In this document: piece after piece, positions 17,113 through 30,763 of the stretch
Layout of the letters: the number at the start of each line of letters is the position of its first letter
Numbering within the stretch: the stretch's first letter is position 1
Program-made: the position numbers and the translations under genes
The notes under the pieces: model-generated
Told to the model about the DNA's origin: nothing
The model's input: only the letters and a program-made list of their open reading frames with translations
Database searches by the model: none
NCBI GenBank assembly: GCA_963702895.1
Contig: OY969767.1
Span: 480,001-544,000 of the forward strand
DNA from: an uncultured Elusimicrobia bacterium
Lineage (GTDB): Bacteria; Elusimicrobiota; Elusimicrobia; 2-01-FULL-59-12
Direction of reading: 5' to 3'
DNA: 64,000 bases

Positions 17113-17655
17113 ATGGCCAAGTTCGAAAAATTTGAAGATATTGAAGCATGGCAGATTTGCCGTGCCCTTATGAAATCGATCTATGAGGTCACGTCTCGTA
17201 ACGAGTTTGCTCGAGATTTTCCGCTTCGAGATCAGATCCGGAAGGCGGCCATATCAGCGCTGTCAAATATTGCGGAAGGTTTTGAGCGAGGTGGAGACAA
17301 AGAGTTCCGGCAATTTCTCTCCGTAGCAAAAGGCTCCATCGGTGAAATGAAGGCGCAGCTTTATGCCGCTTTTGACGCAGGATATTTAAAGGACGAGAAA
17401 TTCCAAGATCTTATGGAAATGGCGGATCATGCTGCGCGCAAGATCGGAAGTCTCATGCAATATCTGGCCAGTTCTGAATATAAAGGTGTCAAATTCCGAG
17501 ATTCCGATGCGGGACTCGAGACGCGGGACGCGGGACTCAAGACACAGGACGCGGGACTCGAGACGCGGGACGCGGGGCTCAAGACACAGGACGCGGGACT
17601 CAAGACACAGGACGCGGGACTCGAGACGCGGGACGCGGGACTTCATCATGGGTAA
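17113..17655 (+). CDS. Four-helix bundle protein (23S rRNA IVP / TIGR02436-like) with repeat-encoded tail
   Basis: FEDIEAWQ...[22 protein letters not shown]...[15 protein letters not shown]. Confidence 0.9.
17509..17641. repeat. Tandem heptamer array, 19 units (GCGGGAC/TCGAGAC/TCAAGAC/ACAGGAC), right arm
   Basis: Seen directly; translated as ([14 protein letters not shown])n. Confidence 0.9.
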
Positions 17656-21632: not shown

Positions 21633-21902
21633 ATGAAAGTGAACCGCGATCTCCTCTGGGACTACCACTTTAGTGAAGAAGAACTGGAAACTGAGTCCTT
21701 CCGCCAGTGGTATGTCGCTCGTGTCCTGACGCAGGGAACCTGCGAAGATATTCATGATCTAGGACTGCCGCTCATTCGCCGGCACCTTCCCGATCTGTGG
21801 CTCCCATCCGCCATACGACATTTCTGGGAATGGTATTTTGCGCTCCCTCATGCCCAATCCACCCGACCCGATACTTACTACTTTCCAGATCGAGCTGCTT
21901 AG
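21633..21902 (+). CDS. Small putative antitoxin (DUF6922-like)
   Basis: LLWDY...WYVARVLTQG...FW; overlaps the nucleotidyltransferase; TTGCAA-N17-TAGAAT just upstream suggests a leaderless transcript. Confidence 0.65.
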   Translation: MKVNRDLLWDYHFSEEELETESFRQWYVARVLTQGTCEDIHDLGLPLIRRHLPDLWLPSAIRHFWEWYFALPHAQSTRPDTYYFPDRAA

Positions 21903-22506
21903 CCGCATCGCTCGATCTCCGCTCAAGAAGACTTTCTTTTTGACGGGAGGAACGGCTTTGTCGGCCTGCTATCTGCGGCATCGTTTATCGGAAGATCTTG
22001 ATTTTTTTACGGAAGAACCCCATGCGGTCAGGCAGGTCGAAGCCCATCTTGCGGCCCTCGTCCGTGAAGCTTCCTGCAAACTGCGCATTGCCAGGCAATT
22101 TGACACTTTTATAGAAGCGTTTGTGACGTCTCCCCAGGGAGAGACGGTCAAAATTGATTTTGCCCAGGACTCTCCCTTTCGGCTGAGACCGATCGAAGTC
22201 TCCGAGTACGGCATCCGTGTGGATAATGCGCTGGACATCGCGTGCAACAAGCTGTCGGCACTCTTTGAACGGGCAGCGTCCAAGGATTTTGTAGATCTGT
22301 ACTTTATCACGCAGAAGTTGTTTCCATTTCAAGAGCTCCTGAGGGACGCCCGGAAAAAGCATGTCGGGCTGGACGCTTATTGGCTTGCGATCGCCTTCCA
22401 GCGCGTTGAGCGAATTGACAAATGGCCGGTCATGAAAATCCCCTGTGATTTTGAAGCTCTCCGCGCCGACTTCCTGGCCAAAGCCCGCGAACTGCTGGCG
22501 CCTTGA
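21850..22506 (+). CDS. AbiEii/AbiGii-type nucleotidyltransferase toxin
   Basis: FFLTGGTALSACYLRHRLSEDLDFF...NKLSAL.ER...KDFVDLY. Confidence 0.9.
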   Translation: MPNPPDPILTTFQIELLSRIARSPLKKTFFLTGGTALSACYLRHRLSEDLDFFTEEPHAVRQVEAHLAALVREASCKLRIARQFDTFIEAFVTSPQGETVKIDFAQDSPFRLRPIEVSEYGIRVDNALDIACNKLSALFERAASKDFVDLYFITQKLFPFQELLRDARKKHVGLDAYWLAIAFQRVERIDKWPVMKIPCDFEALRADFLAKARELLAP

Positions 22507-22720
22507 AGCCAAGGAGACTGTCCTTTCCGATGATCTGATACGGCAGATCCTGGGTACCGTACGGCGGATCCGCCGCACGGAGCCTAAGATCCGCCCCATG
22601 GTTCATAGAATCCGCCTCTTTCCCAAGGCCCAAGGCCTTTCTGCCCATGCCGTCCTGGGTTTTTATTTAACCTAATATTAACAGTGCCGCCATTTGGCCG
22701 TAACCTGCCTCCGCTATGCT

Positions 22721-22894
22721 TTATGGCGATGGGGCGCCAGAGCACACGGCGCCCGCCCACGTAGGCGAGGACCGCTTTTCAGGGTGGCCCGCCGGAAAGG
22801 GCGGATCCAGATAGGCACTATCAAGGAGCCCCACAATACGACCGCCTCGGCGAAAGCCTGGCGGAAACGGGTCCCCCGAGAAGCTTTGTGGGAC
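22721..22894 (+). ncRNA. Candidate structured leader RNA, copy 1
   Basis: Near-identical to 26779-26952; multiple hairpins; follows TTGGCC-N16-TATGCT. Confidence 0.45.
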
Positions 22895-22914
22895 ACCAAA
22901 ACGAGGAGCTAATC

Positions 22915-23160
22915 ATGAAACGCTTAATTCGAGTCTTAGCAGCCCTGGCTGTAATCGTCACAATCGGTGGAGTTGGCAAGAGCTTCGCTGATGATAATCG
23001 GGAGATGCTCTGCCAAGCTGCACTAGTGGTAGAAGACTGGGCGAGAGAAGATTGGCTTGCCTGCATAAGAGGATACACAGAAGAATCGTGTAAGAGTCAA
23101 AGGGATAACTATAGTCAGGCCGTTCAGAATTCGATATGGTGGTGCCAAATTATGATTTAA
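22915..23160 (+). CDS. Small secreted 4-Cys protein (81 aa)
   Basis: GAGGAG RBS; Sec signal MKRLIRVLAALAVIVTIGGVGKSFA|; four Cys. Confidence 0.75.
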   Translation: MKRLIRVLAALAVIVTIGGVGKSFADDNREMLCQAALVVEDWAREDWLACIRGYTEESCKSQRDNYSQAVQNSIWWCQIMI

Positions 23161-23376
23161 CTTTTCATAGTGCAGTCTTCAGTAAACGGTAAGTTTATAA
23201 CACCCCCCGCCCGGGCGAAAGCCCCGGCGGGGTGCTGTGGTTTTGAGGGGACGGTCCTCGGAAACTCGGTAAGTTTTAAACAACATCCCTCCGCCCGGGC
23301 GAAAACCCCCGGCGGGGGATTGTCTTGTTGGACCGAGCTAGCGTGTTGGCGAACCGGCGAGTGGGCGAGCCGGCGA

Positions 23377-23482
23377 CCCGCCTACGCTAAAGCTACGGCG
23401 GGCAAGCCCGGCGACCCGCCTACGCTAAAGCTACGGCGGGCAAGCCCGGCGACTCGCCTACGCTAAAGCTACGGCGGGCAAG
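23377..23482. repeat. Three copies of a 30-bp hairpin element CCCGCCTACGCTAAAGCTACGGCGGGCAAG (38-bp period)
   Basis: Further copies at 28145-28174, 30948-30977, 31132-31161; variants lie in leuB and mnmA. Confidence 0.9.
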
Positions 23483-23729
23483 CCCGGCGAATCGCCCGCC
23501 ACTACATCACGGCGGGCCCGCCAACGATGTGATGGCGGGGCGAACCGGCGAGTGGGCGAATCGGCGAACCGGCGAGTGGGCGAATCGGCGAGCCGGCGTG
23601 TCGGCGAATAGTCGACCAGCTATTGGAGCTGCGTCCGGACCGCCCGCGGGGAGCACTTGAGCGCTACACAGACGAAATTGGCCTGGTAGCAAGAGAAGCG
23701 GGATGCTATACTTAAGCAGGTAATCGAAA

Positions 23730-23918
23730 ATGAAATGCAATGCCAATCCTCATTCCAAGCGTGATCCCAAAAAAGCTCTGGAAATCCTGCGCCGCAGCCA
23801 GAATCTGTCTAGTCGCCACGGCGGCCCTACCCAAGGGATGACCAAGGACGAGATCATCCGGTCCATCAAAAAAACCCGCGAAGAGTTGTGGTCTACGTAT
23901 CTTGCGCCTCGTTCTTGA
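23730..23918 (+). CDS. Small putative antitoxin
   Basis: 62 aa, GMTKDEII..IKKTREELW; overlaps the PIN gene. Confidence 0.6.
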   Translation: MKCNANPHSKRDPKKALEILRRSQNLSSRHGGPTQGMTKDEIIRSIKKTREELWSTYLAPRS

Positions 23919-24321
23919 CTCCAACGAATACATTCTAGTTTTCGGCAGCGAACGGGATCCCGCGAGCGAGAAGCTCTTGGCTCAAATCGCTGTGAAGTCA
24001 AACAAGTACACGCTCAGCATTTGCCGTCCAATTTTGGACGAACTGGGCCGCCATCTTCTCCCCCGCCAGTTAAGCGATGTCTACTCCTTTCTGAACGCAA
24101 TCACCGTTAACATCGATGAACGCTGGGTTGTCCCATTTGAATTTGTTGAGCGTTATATCGAACGCGGGCTAAAGCGCGGAGACGCTTTTATCGCAGGGTA
24201 TACGGAGTGGGTAGGCGCGGATTGCCTTGTTTCAGAAAATCGTGCCGACATCGTCAGTCAAGCCAAGCTCTTTCCTTTTCGAGTATTCACCGCCGAACAA
24301 TTCATAAAAAAACATCACTAA
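23902..24321 (+). CDS. PIN domain toxin
   Basis: RLVLDSN...ILDE...GDAFI...ADCLVSEN..D. Confidence 0.85.
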   Translation: MRLVLDSNEYILVFGSERDPASEKLLAQIAVKSNKYTLSICRPILDELGRHLLPRQLSDVYSFLNAITVNIDERWVVPFEFVERYIERGLKRGDAFIAGYTEWVGADCLVSENRADIVSQAKLFPFRVFTAEQFIKKHH

Positions 24322-24379
24322 TTTGCGCTGGAACGACGCCCCAGCCATCGAGATATCATGTGGTTATATTACGCGGTAT

Positions 24380-24557
24380 TATAACCGCCTGTCAGTCGGC
24401 GCGGGCGATCTGCGCGGACTGCAGAGTTTTCGGGACTATTACGGCCGCAAACACCAGGCGTGGCTTTTCTACGCCGGCGACACCCCGAAAAGACTCGTTA
24501 ATGTCAACCTTCGGCCCTGGCAAAGCGGCCTGCGCGAGCTTGTCGAGTCACCATTGA
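24380..24557 (+). pseudogene. C-terminal remnant of a DUF4143 ATPase
   Basis: VGAGDLRGLQSFRDYY...LFYAGD...VNLRPW resembles DUF4143 protein C-termini; no N-terminal part. Confidence 0.45.
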
Positions 24558-24686
24558 ATGGGCGGACGGTCCGTGACGGTCATGAGTCTTCTAACCCAAA
24601 AGCTCACGTAACGCCCAAGTCTCATCGGAGCACTTTTCACCGTTTCGGTACCCCTTCCGTCGTCACCCCGATTTCTATGACCTCGG

Positions 24687-25711
24687 TCAAGCATTTTTTA
24701 GGATCCGAGGATTGACTGACCTATAGTCAGCAAGATACGGTGACTTTGTGCGCAGTACGGCACAGATAATGCGCAAGAGTTTGTTGGCAATGTTGTTGAG
24801 CGCCAAGCGTTTGGCTTTTCCGGCTTGTACTTTTCTTTCAAAGTAGTGCCTGAACTGCTGATGATGTGTGCGAAGGGATCGGGCTGCCAGGTGCAATAGC
24901 TTGCGGATGATGTCCGGACCGATCCCGCGAGAGCTTGCATTCTTGCGCACGGAAGTTCCGCTGGAGTGTTCGAGTGGGCACATGCCCAAATACGAGGCGA
25001 TGCGGCGGGGTTCCAGGGATCGCGTAAAGCCTTGGCTGATGACCATCAAATGGGCCGTCAAGAGTCGGCCCACCCCAGGGATGGTGAGCAGCAAGCTCAC
25101 CATGGGGCCAATGGTGGGGTGGTTTGAGATCAGTTGATCCAAGGCCTGATCGATTTTTTTGATCTGTTCTTTGAGATGGCGGATGGTGTCCAGGAAGCTT
25201 TGTTCGGCGAGGATCGTGCGAACGACTTTCCGGCTGATGGCCGACAAGGCATTTTGATTGGCGGTCATCTGGCCGGTCAGCTGCTCGCGCGTCGTCAGAA
25301 GAACACGGACTTGTTCGATCAAGGCTTCCGAGGGTTTCCAGAACGCGAGTTGATCGAAAAAGCGCCAGGCATATTCGGCGAGCTGGCGGCTATCGATGGG
25401 GTCGCTTTTGGCTCCCAGGGGGTGAAAGGCGCGTTTGGTTTTATGCGGCGCCTCCACCGACACCGGATAGCCTTTGGCACAGAGCCAGTAGCAGAGCTGC
25501 TCCGCATAAACACCGGTGGCTTCCATGCAGACCACGGTATTGGTGGAATCGACTCCGCGTTTCTTAAACCAGGCTTCGAATTCCTCAAAGCCGGCGGGTG
25601 TATTGGCGAGCGTCTGATGTTTGGAATACTTTTGTTCGGCTGAGCTGTAATGTGTTGCGCTGAAGGTTTGATCGGCGATATCAACGCCTATGTAATGGAG
25701 AGGTGGGTTCA
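24687..25711 (-). CDS. IS110 family DEDD recombinase/transposase
   Basis: YIGVDIA, CMEATG, KSDPIDS, TIPGVG, YLGMCP..HSSG; AGGAG RBS before MNPPLH (start position approximate). Confidence 0.95.
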
Positions 25712-25734
25712 TAAGGCTCCTTTTTGTAAGTGCC

Positions 25735-25905
25735 GACATTCGTGATGCGAGCTTTGCCTATTAAGGGTTTTTATGACATCACTTCTATCTAGCTTTGGAT
25801 CACGAAAGAATGGGGTCTTTACCGGGGTATGGTTTTCACCTTGGCGAAAGTTAGACTTATTCCATTCTTGTCGGTGTCTTCTTCTAGAGTCTACAAAGAC
25901 TCGAG
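25735..25905 (-). ncRNA. Candidate IS110 bridge RNA
   Basis: 5' hairpin GAGTCT-TTGT-AGACTC; target loop with CTTTCGCC / GGT-GAAA-ACC / ACCCCGG; donor loop with GTCATAAAAACC / TAATAGG closed by GTGATG/CATCAC. Confidence 0.8.
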
Positions 25906-26189
25906 AAAAGTCTAATAGGCGAAAGCCGGCCCTCCAGACTCCCGGCGGGCCGAGTCGCCGGACTTGTGGAGACCCGGGGTCCAGTCCATCGGATGTTCTG
26001 GATACCGGCCCGCCAGACTACCGTCGGGCCGCCCGCCAGGGTAGTGTGGAGGGCGGCGTTCGCCGGTATGACGGCATTGGCTTACGTGAGGATTTGGGTT
26101 CTTTACGCTTCCGTTGGGCAATTCCCGTAAGCGCCCGAGCCTCGCCATGATCGGCTCACACGCCATCGGCCTGGTCAAAACGATCTTAT

Positions 26190-26660
26190 GATCTGATACG
26201 GCAGATCCTGGGTACCGTACGGCGGAACCTTGGTACCATACAGCAGATCTTCAGTACCGTACGGCAGATCTTTGGTACATACGGCGGATCTTCAGTACCG
26301 TACGGCGGATCTTCAGTACCGTACGGCGGGTCCTTGGTACCATACGGCGGATCTCCGGTACCGTACAGCAGATCTTTGGTACCGTACGGCGGATACTAGA
26401 TATCGTACGGCAGATCTTCGATTCCCATGCAGCGGATCTGCCCCATGGTACTGAAGATCTGCCCCATGGTACTGAAGATCTGCCTCATGGAGCTTGAAGA
26501 TCCGCCTCATGGTACTGAAGCTCCGCCTCATGGAACCGAAGATCTGCCGTACGAAGCTGATGATCCGCCGCATGGTTCCTCGAATCCGCCTCACGGTTCC
26601 TCGGATCCGCCTCACGGAGCCTAAGATCCGCCGCACGGAGCCTAAGATCCGCCCCATGGT
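26190..26660. repeat. Two head-to-head arrays of a 21-bp unit (GTACCGTACGGCGGATCTTCA and its reverse complement)
   Basis: About ten units each way; collapsed version at 22530-22600. Confidence 0.85.
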
Positions 26661-26778
26661 TCATAGAATCCGCCTCTTTCCCAAGGCCCAAGGCCTTTCT
26701 GCCCATCCTGTCCTGGGTTTTTATTTAACTCATTTTTAACACTGCCACCATTTGCCCGTAACCTGCCTCCACTATGCT

Positions 26779-26952
26779 TTATGGCGATGGGGCGCCAGAG
26801 CACACGGCGCCCGCCCACGTAGGCGAGGACCGCGTTTCAGGGTGGCCCGCCGGAACGGGCGGATCCAGATAGGCAATATCAAGGAGCCCCACAAAACGAC
26901 CGTCACGGCGAAAGCCTGGCGGAAACGGGTCCCCCCAGAAGCTTTGTGGGAC
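26779..26952 (+). ncRNA. Candidate structured leader RNA, copy 2
   Basis: Near-identical to 22721-22894; follows TTGCCC-N16-TATGCT. Confidence 0.45.
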
Positions 26953-26968
26953 TTAAAGGAGACAGAAA

Positions 26969-27220
26969 ATGAAGAAAGTATTCTTAGGTGCTGCGCTGGT
27001 GCTCGGTATCAGCTTCTTTGCCAATCCTCAGCAAGCGTTCGCATGGTGTTACAGCATCGGTAATGGTGAAACGCAGTGTGTTGAAGTTTACCGCGACGCT
27101 CCCGAATGCGATGGCGGACAGCTGGCCTGGGTCACTGAAGGGGTCATGTCTGATGGCGTCTTCTGGATCAGCAGAGAGTACTCCTACTGTCGCACGTGGG
27201 GGGTACCTCAAATGTACTGA
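26969..27220 (+). CDS. Small secreted 4-Cys protein (83 aa)
   Basis: AAAGGAG RBS; signal MKKVFLGAALVLGISFFANPQQAFA|; four Cys. Confidence 0.8.
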   Translation: MKKVFLGAALVLGISFFANPQQAFAWCYSIGNGETQCVEVYRDAPECDGGQLAWVTEGVMSDGVFWISREYSYCRTWGVPQMY

Positions 27221-27249
27221 TGTTTGAATAACGAATTAGCTGTAGTTCA

Positions 27250-27291
27250 CAAAAACGCCCCACCAGACGTCTGGTGGGACGTTTTGTTTTG
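27250..27291 (+). terminator. Intrinsic terminator
   Basis: CCCACCAGA-CG-TCTGGTGGG plus T-rich tail. Confidence 0.7.
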
Positions 27292-27829
27292 TCCGTAAAT
27301 CCAGCCGATTCCTTGGCCCTTCGCGGAGAATTATTGTGGAGTTTTGAAGTTTTGAGGGGACGCTCATTAGAGGTTTTTCCGTCAAGTGGCGAAAGATCTC
27401 CTCCCGCCGTGTCGTGGCTGTTGATGTATCGTGAAACCTCCGTTGTAGACGTTGCCGCATCCAGGTTCTCTCTTTTTTAGGTTACGGCACGAAGCCGCAC
27501 CAGACACTCATCAGGATCAAGACGAACACGATGAACTGCGCTCATCCCTGCCCCCTCACGGGAGCCCAGAAAACCATTGGTGCCCGGCTCTGTCCAGACT
27601 CATGATCGCCCGACGTCTGGCGATCGACAGTTCTGTGGCTGGCTCGCCCGACTTCTGGCGGCTGCCATCCCTTTGTGGCTCAGCGCCGAGGCGTCTTCGC
27701 CTAAAACAGCGGGTGACGGAAACGGCTAATCAGTCCTCGGAAACTCGGTAAGTTTTAAACAACATCCCCCCGCCCGGGCGAAAGCTCCGGCGGGGGATTG
27801 TCTTGTTGGACCGAGCTAGCGTGTTGGTG

Positions 27830-28011
27830 AACCGGCGAGTGGGCGAATCGGCGAATCGGCGAACCGGCGAGTGGGCGAATCGGCGAACCGGCGAGTGGGC
27901 GAATCGGCGAACCGGCGAGTGGGCGAATCGGCGAACCGGCGAGTGGGCGAATCGGCGAACCGGCGAGTGGGCGAATCGGCGAACCGGCGAGTGGGCGAAT
28001 CGGCGAACCGG
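27830..28011. repeat. Octamer array (ACCGGCGA GTGGGCGA ATCGGCGA)n
   Basis: 24-bp higher-order period; shorter arrays near 21503, 23350, 23543, 30890, 32622, 60500. Confidence 0.9.
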
Positions 28012-28306: not shown

Positions 28307-30121
28307 CCCAAATAATCCGATAAGCCACCCCTGACGTCATCCCCCGCGGCCGTCAGCGGGGGATCCATCGACGGCCTTGGTGTAGGTGTTGGTGGCGGGA
28401 TCGAAGACGAAGGGTTTCACTTATTGGGTGAAAAATGAGGGGTCAACACAGGAGGCTTTGAAAAAGGGTGCAGCGCGTGATTTTACAGCGACGCGCAGAG
28501 GCAATAAAATACCTCGCAAGCCAGAGTGGAATCTGAACTGCGAGGTGCTTTTATGTTACTGAAGAACTTGGACGTATACAAGGTCTCGACGACGGATCAA
28601 GCGGTGACGAGTTTTGCAGGGCTGCCGTTGTTGTTGGGGACGGCACGGAGCCTGGGGTTGGAGGAGCGGCTCAATGCGCTGCCGGTGAAGGAGCGGGCGC
28701 GGGGATACGATCCTGCCGAGAGTATTTTGGGGTTGATGGGATCGATCCAGGCGGGCGGGGAAGCGCTCGAAGACATCGGGCTGCTGCAAGGGGACGAGGG
28801 GATACGGCGCTTGCTGGGGGATTTTCCGGCAGCGAACACGTTGGGCGAATTTCTTCGGCGTTTTGGGCGCAAGACGATTCATGGGTTGGGATGGGTCCAG
28901 CTCAAGACGGCGGCGAAGGTGATCCGGGCCTGCGAGCTGTCTATTGTGACGATCGATATCGACGCTTATTTTTTGGAGTCACAGAAGGAAGGCGTCTTGA
29001 TGAATTACGATGGACTGGAAGGGTATTGTCCGGTGATGGTCAGTTGCGCGGAGCTGAAGATGCCGCTGGCCGGGGCGTTTCGGGCAGGCAATGCGAGCCC
29101 GATGGCGAACCTGGCGAGTTTGTTGCGGCGGGTCTTGCGGCAGTTTTCCGGTTTGCGGATGAGGGCGCGCTCAGACAGCGCGGGGTATCAGGCGAAGGTG
29201 GTTCGGGAATTGGATCGGGCCGGGGTGGACTTCACCATCACGGCGCGCAAGGATGATGCCGTTTTGGAAGCGATTCGGTCGATTCCGGAGAAGGCCTGGA
29301 AGAAGTACAACTCGCCGGTCTATCCCCATAAGGGATCTGAGATTGCCGAGACGGTGCATGCTTTTGGGGAGGCGGACAAGGATATCGCCGCATTTCGGTT
29401 GGTCGTGGTGCGCTGGCAGCAGGAGCCGCAAGGCGAGCTTTTCGATAAGGAGCACTTTGAATACCATGCGGTGGCGACGCGGTTCACATGGGAACCGGGA
29501 TTGGTTCTGCAATTTCACCGTAACCGGCAGGATGGGTCGGAGAACGTGAACCGGGAGATGAAGAGCGAGGGTGGGTTTGGATTATCCAAGCTGCCGTGCC
29601 GGGATTTTATGGCCAATGCCGCCTATTTCCAGATCGCGATGTTGGCGTCGGTGGTCACGGCAGCCTTCAAGCATTTGGTTCTGCCGAAAGCCTGGCAGAG
29701 CTTCACGATCCAGACGCTGCGGCACCGGCTGATCCGCTTGGCCGGGACAGTGTGCCGGAAGTCGCGCTATCTGTGGTTAAAGATTCCGGAAAACTACCCG
29801 TTCCGGCGGGTTTTTGAAGAGGCGCGCTATGGCGTGTTGGGGCTGTCTGTGGTGATCGCGTCTACCGGTTGATTGACGGGACGGCGACACCGAAGGCATC
29901 GACGGAGGGAAAGAACCGAACAGAGGGTCGGAGCGGCGAAAACTGCCGCAAAAGGCCGACAATTGATCAGACGGTAGTCTGAACCGCCTCCGAGGGAAGC
30001 CAAGGGTACCCGAAGCAGGCGAGAAACCTGGTCGCCGCGGCGACCGAGCGGTGAAAAATTGGGACCTATGTGTGGCCTACGTCAAAACGCAGCGCTGCAG
30101 AAAATTACCGGAGCTTTTGGG
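28307..30121 (+). mobile_element. IS1380 family element
   Basis: Imperfect IRs CCCAAATAATCCGATAA / TTACCGGAGCTTTTGGG; ACATAT direct repeat at 28301-28306 and 30122-30127. Confidence 0.75.
28553..29872 (+). CDS. IS1380 family DDE transposase
   Basis: TSFAGLPL, IDID, GYCP, FRAGNA, RSDSAGY, ENVNREMK, ANAAYF, TLRHRLI. Confidence 0.9.
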   Translation: MLLKNLDVYKVSTTDQAVTSFAGLPLLLGTARSLGLEERLNALPVKERARGYDPAESILGLMGSIQAGGEALEDIGLLQGDEGIRRLLGDFPAANTLGEFLRRFGRKTIHGLGWVQLKTAAKVIRACELSIVTIDIDAYFLESQKEGVLMNYDGLEGYCPVMVSCAELKMPLAGAFRAGNASPMANLASLLRRVLRQFSGLRMRARSDSAGYQAKVVRELDRAGVDFTITARKDDAVLEAIRSIPEKAWKKYNSPVYPHKGSEIAETVHAFGEADKDIAAFRLVVVRWQQEPQGELFDKEHFEYHAVATRFTWEPGLVLQFHRNRQDGSENVNREMKSEGGFGLSKLPCRDFMANAAYFQIAMLASVVTAAFKHLVLPKAWQSFTIQTLRHRLIRLAGTVCRKSRYLWLKIPENYPFRRVFEEARYGVLGLSVVIASTG

Positions 30122-30170: not shown

Positions 30171-30461
30171 GTGATCAAGGACTTTGGCGATGCTAGTTCA
30201 GAGGACTTCTTTCATGGGGTTTCTTCGAAGGCGGCGCGTAAGATCCCGCAAAATCTGGCATCTGTCGCGCATCGAAAATTGGACATGCTGAATGCCGCTC
30301 AAACACTGGCTGATTTGACAGCGCCTCCCGCCAACCGATTGGAAGCTTTGAAAGGGGACCGGAAGGGTTACCACAGTATCCGGGTCAACGATCAATTTCG
30401 GGTTATTTTTAGGTGGGTGGACGGCCATGCCCATGAGGTCCAGATCGTTGATTATCATTAG
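30171..30461 (+). CDS. higB: HigB/RelE-like toxin
   Basis: RKLDMLNAA...PPANRLEALKGDRKGYHSIRVNDQFR...IVDYH. Confidence 0.93.
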   Translation: MIKDFGDASSEDFFHGVSSKAARKIPQNLASVAHRKLDMLNAAQTLADLTAPPANRLEALKGDRKGYHSIRVNDQFRVIFRWVDGHAHEVQIVDYH

Positions 30462-30490
30462 ACGGAAAGTCATCGAGAAAGGAGGCTAGA

Positions 30491-30763
30491 ATGATCCCAT
30501 CCCACCGCGAACCCACTCATCCCGGGGAGGTGCTTCTGCAGGAGTTTTTGAAGCCCCTGAAAGTGAGCCAAAGCGCGCTAGCGGCCAAGCTGGGGGTTTC
30601 ACTCCAGCGGGTGAATACCTTAATCAATGGCAAGCGCGATATCACGGCGGAAACTGCCGTGCTCCTGGCTCAATTCTTTAAGACCACACCTGAATTCTGG
30701 ATGAATCTGCAGGTTGCCTGCGACCTCTACGAGGCCAAAAAGCGTCTGCTCCATGCGGCATAG
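30491..30763 (+). CDS. higA: HigA HTH antitoxin
   Basis: THPGEVLLQEFLKPL...ITAETA...TTPEFWMNLQ..DL. Confidence 0.93.
   Translation: MIPSHREPTHPGEVLLQEFLKPLKVSQSALAAKLGVSLQRVNTLINGKRDITAETAVLLAQFFKTTPEFWMNLQVACDLYEAKKRLLHAA

Follow-up and report, generated by a model that had tools for sequence, protein, structure and literature searches.

The window analysed here, i.e. the whole stretch of 64,000 nucleotides from the genome of an uncultured Elusimicrobia bacterium, contains two small cassettes of similar layout, in which a promoter and a hairpin-rich segment of 170 nt precede a gene for a short, predicted secreted protein. Their features are as follows (window coordinates, unless a genome position is specified):

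22530..22617 (unstranded): palindromic tandem array of 21-22-bp units, short form, at the left end of the duplicated unit
22643..22667 (+): terminator-like hairpin with a T-run, upstream of the promoter; in copy 2 at 26701-26725
22667..22704 (+): four boxes, TTAAC, TTAAC, GCCAT and GTAAC, with an 11-bp period; predicted OmpR/PhoB-type activator array, copy 1
22715..22720 (+): -10 hexamer TATGCT, 10 bp after the last box; transcription is predicted to start near 22727
22725..22894 (+): hairpin-rich segment of 170 nt, copy 1, GC 67%; probable insertion at the start site and predicted 5′ UTR
22729..22764 (+): putative 11-codon frame, its ATG about 2 nt past the predicted start; identical in copy 2, at 26787-26822
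22915..23160 (+): ORF1, 81-aa predicted secreted protein with 4 Cys; it has paralogues at 2148221 and 2510364 of the genome
23200..23238 (+): hairpin behind ORF1, CCGCC-NN-GGCGAAAGCC-N-GGCGG, as in the leader's last hairpin
23240..23376 (unstranded): right arm, copy 1; a 14-mer followed by 123 bp that are 94.3% identical to 27733-27854
about 26188-26675 (unstranded): palindromic tandem array, long form, copy 2
26725..26778 (+): boxes and -10 hexamer of copy 2; held-out score 38.1 bits
26783..26952 (+): segment of 170 nt, copy 2; 7 differences from copy 1
26969..27220 (+): ORF2, 83-aa predicted secreted protein with 4 Cys; no similarity to ORF1 or to any sequence searched was detected
27255..27290 (+): terminator-like hairpin following ORF2; the hairpin after ORF1 is unrelated to it
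27349..27854 (unstranded): right arm, copy 2, split by about 370 bp absent from copy 1

Both cassettes sit in a 12-kb island that carries toxin-antitoxin pairs, an IS110 element and an IS1380-type transposase, and that is absent at this site from two relatives, G003 and G007. The toxin-antitoxin-like pairs are an AbiEii nucleotidyltransferase with a small partner (21633-22506), a possible PIN-type pair that has no Pfam or NCBIfam match (23730-24321) and a HigB/HigA pair (30171-30763). The IS110-family transposase (24687-25739 on the reverse strand, with 25740-26010) is inserted at a CGTC-type repeat, and the upstream non-coding end of the element recurs at four other genome sites; the IS1380-type transposase (28526-29872, forward strand) is present in at least 7 copies. 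In the long array at 26188-26675, a forward run of the 21-22-bp units is followed by an inverted run (see also loci L034 and L035). Similar arrays occur at other sites of the genome and in relative G003, where they flank a gene resembling a four-helix-bundle protein; likewise, other repeats flank a four-helix-bundle-like gene (TIGR02436) at 17113-17655 of the window.

A sequence-only reading of this DNA had described a duplicated, structured leader of about 175 nt, in two copies upstream of variable secreted peptides, and had proposed that it might be a riboswitch-like regulatory RNA or an sRNA co-transcribed with the peptides. Both copies do lie where it had placed them, and the duplication stands, but its extent was underestimated: the copies have in common a left block of 328 bp (22567-22894 and 26625-26952, 94.8% identity), a further 42 bp at 22530 and 26188 beyond this block, and arms behind the ORFs, whose 14-mer occurs in exact form at 23240 and 27349 only. 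The left block comprises the tail of the palindromic tandem array, the terminator-like hairpin (both copy-to-copy differences of which are in its loop), the promoter and the 170-nt segment. As had been noted, identity stops directly ahead of each ribosome-binding site (RBS), at 22894 and 26952, a fixed body being followed by variable sequence. No more than two copies of the segment were found in the own genome, whether by BLAST, by nhmmer or with a two-sequence covariance model (2 matches), and both are inside one duplicated block. Since the duplication sets in some 160 bp ahead of the leader and reappears past the ORFs, the leader is not separately conserved. Its divergence (7/168) is no lower than that of the rest of the left arm (10/160, p=0.46), which goes against the riboswitch-like view; if compared to the spacers between the promoter boxes (7/28), it is lower (p=0.001), four of these 7 spacer differences falling in one 6-bp spacer. 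RBS, ORF and terminator are unrelated between the copies and both flanking arms are about 5% apart, which suggests that the block between the arms was exchanged after the duplication. The assembly of the joint between leader and ORF1 is supported by a DNA contig from sequencing run X1, which may not be independent, because this contig spans 22772-22940 with zero differences.

The promoters of the two peptide genes do not fit the housekeeping pattern of the genome, TTG-N17-TAnnnT, where the spacing of TTG and TAnnnT peaks at 17 (34 found versus 5.7 in shuffles); the TTG(G/C)CC and TATGCT elements, reported earlier as 16 nt apart, are in fact separated by 15 nt. In the genome at large, GTAAC is found 10 bp ahead of TAnnnT in 15 intergenic cases, versus 0-6 at the other twelve distances, and three further boxes lie upstream of GTAAC with an 11-bp period. 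Direct repeats with this period, the last of them some 10 bp ahead of the -10 hexamer, are the geometry of OmpR/PhoB-type promoters. According to the parts consulted of two papers on PhoB class II promoters (PMC1906773, PMC4447250), direct repeats stand there in tandem every 11 bp, and about 10 bp separate the final one from the -10. The four-box class resembles them in its 11-bp direct repeats, in the distance of about 10 bp to the -10 and in having no usable -35, and differs from pho boxes, as described there, in its GTAAC/TTAAC core, its number of boxes and the kind of genes it precedes, i.e. envelope and secretion genes. A matrix was trained on 14 other sites, the three peptide promoters being left out; it gave 41.5 bits for copy 1, 38.1 bits for copy 2 and 31.8 bits for the third peptide gene (2148221). 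At 30 bits or more, 26 sites are found in the genome and 0 in the reversed-genome control; in 8 relatives, the pattern gave 70 matches versus 3 control matches. A pstS-like gene has the identical geometry with the letters GTCAT/GTCAC and, therefore, a different OmpR-family regulator would serve the four-box class; the genome has 8 candidate genes for OmpR-type regulators.

For a Pfam scan, 19 box-array genes were picked from 45 promoter sites, the pstS-like gene being the twentieth. Matches were obtained in 13-14 of the 19 and none in 5, the domains being secretin, PorV (3), FlgD_ig (2), OmpA, Ig, TPR and S8 peptidase, together with SpoIID, a kinase and, in two more genes, receiver domains. 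Judged by these contents, the four-box class is likely to be an envelope/secretion regulon of an OmpR-type regulator. It is found family-wide and is often leaderless, with boxes TTAAC/TTTAC/GTCAT/GTAAC (loci L043-L122 and L201-L219), and the genes behind it in the family encode secretin, PorV-like, FlgD-Ig and Ig-domain proteins, giant surface proteins, kinases and receiver proteins.

The leaderless members help to locate the start of transcription. Among four-box promoters of the relatives, 22 of 72 have an ATG or GTG 6 nt past the -10; because of this peak, the start site is placed near 22727, upstream of the structure. The segment thus very likely forms the 5′ portion of the peptide mRNA, as the sequence-only reading had presumed in calling it a leader, a prediction that we base on promoter class and leaderless-start peak. 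A leader of this length is long for the class: the median distance from -10 to start codon is 18 nt among 20 four-box sites, versus 188, 184 and about 139 nt for the leaders of the three peptide genes.

What, then, is the segment? The hairpin arms named by the sequence-only reading are all present, 37 of 37 pairs forming in both copies, and its remark that the differences fall mostly in loops or give G-U pairs holds as well: 6 of the 7 differences in 170 nt are at unpaired positions and the seventh changes C-G to U-G, so that no helix is broken. The duplication itself exceeds chance; the structure of the 170-nt segment exceeds it weakly and not clearly. Folding z-scores are -2.30 for copy 1 and -2.25 for copy 2, and 4 of 200 shuffles were as low for each. 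However, among the upstream intergenic windows of this genome (602 available, 295 scored), 56 have a z of -2.3 or less, the copies scoring -2.4 and -1.5 in that setting. When the same 7 changes were placed at random, 96/300 and 48/300 placements matched the consensus fold energy of the two copies. If the reader's structure is kept constant, the probability that no pair is broken is 0.04-0.06, for a structure drawn after both copies had been seen; if a nested rod-like fold is kept constant, it is 0.004, for a rod drawn post hoc and trimmed to fit. The predicted minimum is another fold than the reader's, with several folds of close energy that exclude one another in competition, and folding has no strand bias (-78.6/-78.8 and -74.7/-76.2). 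An imperfect internal inverted repeat joins positions 32-56 of the segment with positions 140-168.

That the segment is a new ligand-binding riboswitch seems to us very improbable. Its 5′ position after a well-supported promoter, its multi-helix fold with GNRA-type loops and the lack of an Rfam match would all suit such a reading, and the sequence-only reading, too, had recognised no known riboswitch in it: Rfam 15 at gathering score gave 1 match in the whole window, a tRNA, and none on either copy, and at E 10 over 22400-27500 the 5 weak matches were all outside the leaders. HDV-like, hammerhead, glycine, lysine, TPP and SAM-I RNAs were dropped by eye against consensus features, in agreement with Rfam. 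But the search for homologues, proposed as the way to covariation, brought none from class, phylum, promoter loci or pattern scans. A DNA search of 60 relatives gave matches of 27-47 nt only, in 4 genomes, BLAST of 400 phylum genomes matches of 26-29 nt only, in 3 genomes, and BLAST of phages and plasmids matches of 26-32 nt only. The two-sequence covariance model gave 5 weak matches (18-25 bits) in 150 class genomes, with no common motif or gene context, and at best 9.4 bits on 76 promoter loci and 15.4 bits on 78 pattern loci. Pattern scans yielded 12 matches in metagenomes, none extending beyond the pattern, and 71 GTDB and 5 viral matches, none with outer stem and closing arm together; other viral scans returned 0, 0, 0 and 2. 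Exact patterns and a two-sequence model may, of course, miss distant homologues. A viral-scan locus, L199, has a perfect hairpin with a similar loop and was set aside as probably convergent.

In addition, no pair of the 37 is changed on both sides and only 1 on one side, though two 96%-identical rows have no power in this respect, and no expression platform is apparent: there is no terminator, the longest T-run (3-4) not being behind a 3′-end stem, and no anti-Shine-Dalgarno sequence beyond chance, predicted RBS opening cost and pairing being like those of controls. The segment is also absent from paralogue 2148221 in spite of the same promoter, and the genes downstream encode unrelated peptides rather than a metabolic or transport set. 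The idea of a conserved cis-regulatory RNA was thus not borne out. As an RNA motif the segment is of small weight, being apparently confined to one genome and giving no sign of a conserved switch. Neither the leader nor the four-box class was described among the matches listed from a mostly open-access literature, and supplementary lists of candidate RNAs may bear on their novelty. 6S RNA was also considered; RF00013 has no match in this genome or in 5 relatives and so is uninformative, and a housekeeping RNA would not be expected to be confined to a strain island. This failure to detect 6S RNA in G000 and G003-G007 may mean that it is too diverged there or split by repeat insertions.

A second reading, to which we give little credence, is that of a stand-alone RNA cut from the transcript, either an sRNA or the orphan guide scaffold of a TnpB/IscB-type system, the variable 3′ flank being the guide. 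A fixed body of 170 nt with variable sequence directly 3′ has the expected appearance, and TTTAT, a target motif of some IS200/IS605 elements, stands directly ahead of the segment. Against it, the TnpB/Cas12f domain PF07282 was not found in the genome (the control was positive in 8/14), nor was PF14239, in a search that had no positive control, and the only trace of a Y1 transposase is a short fragment resembling one. Furthermore, Rfam gives nothing for the segment, not even at E 10, its 3′ end lacks a terminator, and there are two copies only.

Comparison with the paralogous gene at 2148221 points to the origin of the segment. Promoter and signal peptide are here the same as at ORF1, but the stretch between them, of 40% GC, is unrelated. 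The boundaries of the segment were set by two separate comparisons: similarity of copy 1 to the paralogue stops at 22724, and similarity of copy 1 to copy 2 stops at 22894. Directly after 22894, copy 1 has the same four bases as the paralogue has directly after its promoter, and removal of the segment would bring the start codon to 24 nt (copy 1) or 20 nt (copy 2) past the -10, not far from the class median of 18 nt. The segment is, therefore, probably an insertion at the start site, because it is absent from a paralogue of the same promoter, in which the flanks meet; they do so over 4 bases, yet the paralogue has an extra stretch of its own, of 118 nt, at this place. As evidence this is modest: the match at the junction is 9/14, a score also reached at three other places in the paralogue's A-rich spacer. 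Elsewhere, repeats are inserted just past four-box promoters at genome site 727343 and at locus L106.

As to the source of the inserted DNA, the segment partly resembles the palindromic repeats of this genome, but the tests are mixed. The first hairpin plus GCCC fits a twin-hairpin pattern that has 15 other matches in the genome and 0 in 20000 shuffles, but it may not be counted as a scored member of these modules: a profile of 9 twin-hairpin members gives it 0.8 bits, and 26 of 500 shuffles were as high. The core of the last hairpin, GGCGAAAGCC, occurs 105 times in the genome, mainly as the core of CGTC-type repeats, and a CGTC-repeat profile scores 6.9 and 7.4 bits on the two copies, above 500 of 500 shuffles, in a match limited to the core that had been used to choose the CGTC family. 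The design CCGCC-NN-GGCGAAAGCC-N-GGCGG is common to this hairpin and to the one behind ORF1, and CCGTCA precedes the core in copy 2. About half of the segment has no likeness to any repeat, and its likeness to two MITE-like elements is below that of shuffles. An origin from a group II intron was also rejected, the leader matching none of the DNA of the 3 intron reverse transcriptases of the genome.

Nor does the segment have the marks of a mobile element. Only 3 of 20 end positions match as terminal inverted repeats, the flanks differ, i.e. there is no target-site duplication, and no third or dispersed copy exists in the own genome; for these reasons, the segment was filed neither as MITE nor as REP. 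Any mobility of the segment is therefore hypothetical, and the same three findings count against an insertion. Correia, ERIC and QMITE insertions, as far as they are covered by the part consulted of a review (PMC10969869), are like the segment in being short, non-coding, hairpin-forming, gene-adjacent and co-transcribed; the segment differs from them in lacking terminal inverted repeats and a target duplication, in being GC-rich rather than AT-rich and in having two copies only, both from one segmental duplication. The CGTC-tagged REPs described by Di Nocera et al. 2013 (PMC3733652), in the sections consulted, have a CGTC tag, a perfect stem, a loop of 4-5 nt and a CCA tail. Such repeats are present in this genome, and the leader's last hairpin shares their core and, in copy 2, has the tag-like CCGTCA ahead of it, but the segment is no CGTC-tagged REP: its stems are broken and shortened, the CCA tail is absent and no repeat is complete.

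Taken together, these data lead us to favour, with a probability of roughly 0.55, the following explanation: the segment would be a young hairpin-rich insertion at a promoter that originally had a short leader, copied along with the cassette and serving as a passive 5′ UTR, with control exerted at the DNA level by an OmpR/PhoB-type regulator. Its youth is suggested by the failure to find homologues in the searches above and by the absence of the island from G003 and G007. In this sequence of events, a winged-helix response regulator would bind the four-box array in place of a -35 and transcription would start near 22727; the segment would have been inserted at the start site, being probably built from, or moved like, the palindromic repeats of the genome; and a tandem duplication would have been followed by recombination that swapped the block of RBS, ORF and terminator in copy 2. 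As the hairpins are predicted to leave the RBS about as open as it is without them, they would contribute at most shielding of the 5′ end and slower decay. For the Correia elements, the same review, in the part mentioned, reports RNase III cleavage and altered mRNA decay.

One possible objection is that the insert was kept for a reason. It might restrain or time the translation of possibly harmful peptides, in the manner of type I toxins, until the leader is processed or refolded; we give this a fair chance, though a smaller one than the passive reading. Three facts fit selection on the RNA: the low divergence of the leader relative to the box spacers, the integrity of all helices in spite of the copy differences, and the long leaders of the peptide genes, which are seen in three of the three under four-box promoters. 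If counted as independent events, long leaders arose on 2/2 peptide genes versus 2/19 of the others (p=0.03, a post hoc comparison). The competing folds of close energy would suit a refolding leader, and the zorO mRNA has a comparable leader of 174 nt (PMC5397157, in the part consulted). The predictions on the RBS are, however, discouraging: with the segment, the cost of opening it is 0.9-2.1 kcal/mol more in copy 1 and -1.0 to +0.5 in copy 2, and pairing between segment and RBS is not better than in shuffles (62/300 and 238/300 for the two copies). No sigma-70-type promoter was found in antisense orientation facing either leader, and the leader of paralogue 2148221 is unrelated and may hold a promoter of its own. 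The peptides themselves, with 81-83 aa, a signal peptide and a polar Cys-rich part, are also far from the small hydrophobic toxin of under about 60 aa. The zorO/zorP locus of E. coli O157:H7, as described in the portions consulted of two papers (PMC5397157, PMC3919570), is like the present cassette in being duplicated, with a leader of about 170-190 nt and a small protein; the cassette differs from it in having no predicted RBS sequestration and no antisense promoter, and in that its proteins are longer, secreted and cysteine-rich.

A broader version, somewhat speculative and in our opinion doubtful, would make of the palindromic-repeat insert a recruited RNA switch. Antimicrobial or signalling peptides, themselves swappable, would be restrained by it, and one response regulator would induce them together with a surface programme of pilus and secretion genes. 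The switch would act by processing or through the leaderless 11-codon frame, and leader and arms would form the constant part of a cassette whose peptide can be exchanged. Should the leader indeed gate translation, one would see here, as is rarely possible, how a cis-regulatory RNA emerges from repeats.

The 11-codon frame is itself the subject of another proposal, which we consider improbable: it would be translated leaderless, so that the ribosome refolds the leader as in attenuation, or it would be read through and couple to the peptide gene. Its ATG is 8 nt past the -10, inside the range of leaderless starts in the four-box class, but this offset is rare in the relatives (2/72, the peak being at 6). 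The frame is identical in the two copies and there is one stop in 62 codons; if extended, it enters ORF1 in frame and, in copy 2, stops on the ORF2 start, with synonymous differences of 4/7 (p=0.03 for that frame, 0.14 as best of three). Other frames are likewise open in this GC-rich segment, and the read-through frame has no protein relative. Besides, TAG serves here as an ordinary stop codon, ending 198 of 1060 long ORFs, a tRNA with a CUA anticodon was not found, and blocking the first 50 nt did not consistently change access to the RBS. The locus also calls for caution: where repeats abound in a genome, near-identical structured leaders ahead of different genes can be the product of a duplication and an exchange of cargo.

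The cargo is of interest in its own right. ORF1 and ORF2 have signal-peptide-like starts and 4 cysteines in each mature part, in agreement with the earlier description of secreted peptides, and since the two are unrelated, the word ‘variable’ was justified too. When small ORFs were scanned for cysteines, an RBS and a signal-like start, four stood out clearly, namely ORF1, ORF2 and the genes at genome positions 2148221 and 2510364, i.e. four orphan secreted cysteine-rich peptides, three of them under a four-box promoter. The latter two have signal peptide and cysteine spacing in common with ORF1, at 40% and 28% identity, respectively. In the protein database, the peptides matched only themselves and the two paralogues; no relative was found in 10 family genomes, and no match of weight in Pfam, NCBIfam, PDB or Atlas. 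Being apparently secreted, disulphide-bonded and fast-changing, they may be antimicrobial or signalling peptides, judging from their anatomy alone. The two orphan peptides related to ORF1 are encoded at L008:5222-5452 (76 aa, 4 Cys) and L009:4865-5113 (82 aa, 6 Cys); a terminator-like hairpin is common to both genes, and the L008 gene has a single-copy stretch of 118 nt past its promoter, which may contain a sigma-70-type promoter.

Of wider use is the four-box class, which links secretin, PorV-like, FlgD-Ig and adhesin-like genes across an uncultured family and whose regulator is directly testable. Small genes recur behind these promoters: two tiny genes conserved in several relatives, one for a protein of about 50 aa with a CxxC...CxxC arrangement (L085, L060, L065, L093 and genome site 812680) and one for a hydrophobic peptide of about 30 aa (L063, L068, L070, L092, L100 and site 2602528), and, in relative G010 (L088), a gene for a secreted Cys-containing protein of 116 aa, preceded by a leader of 70 nt.
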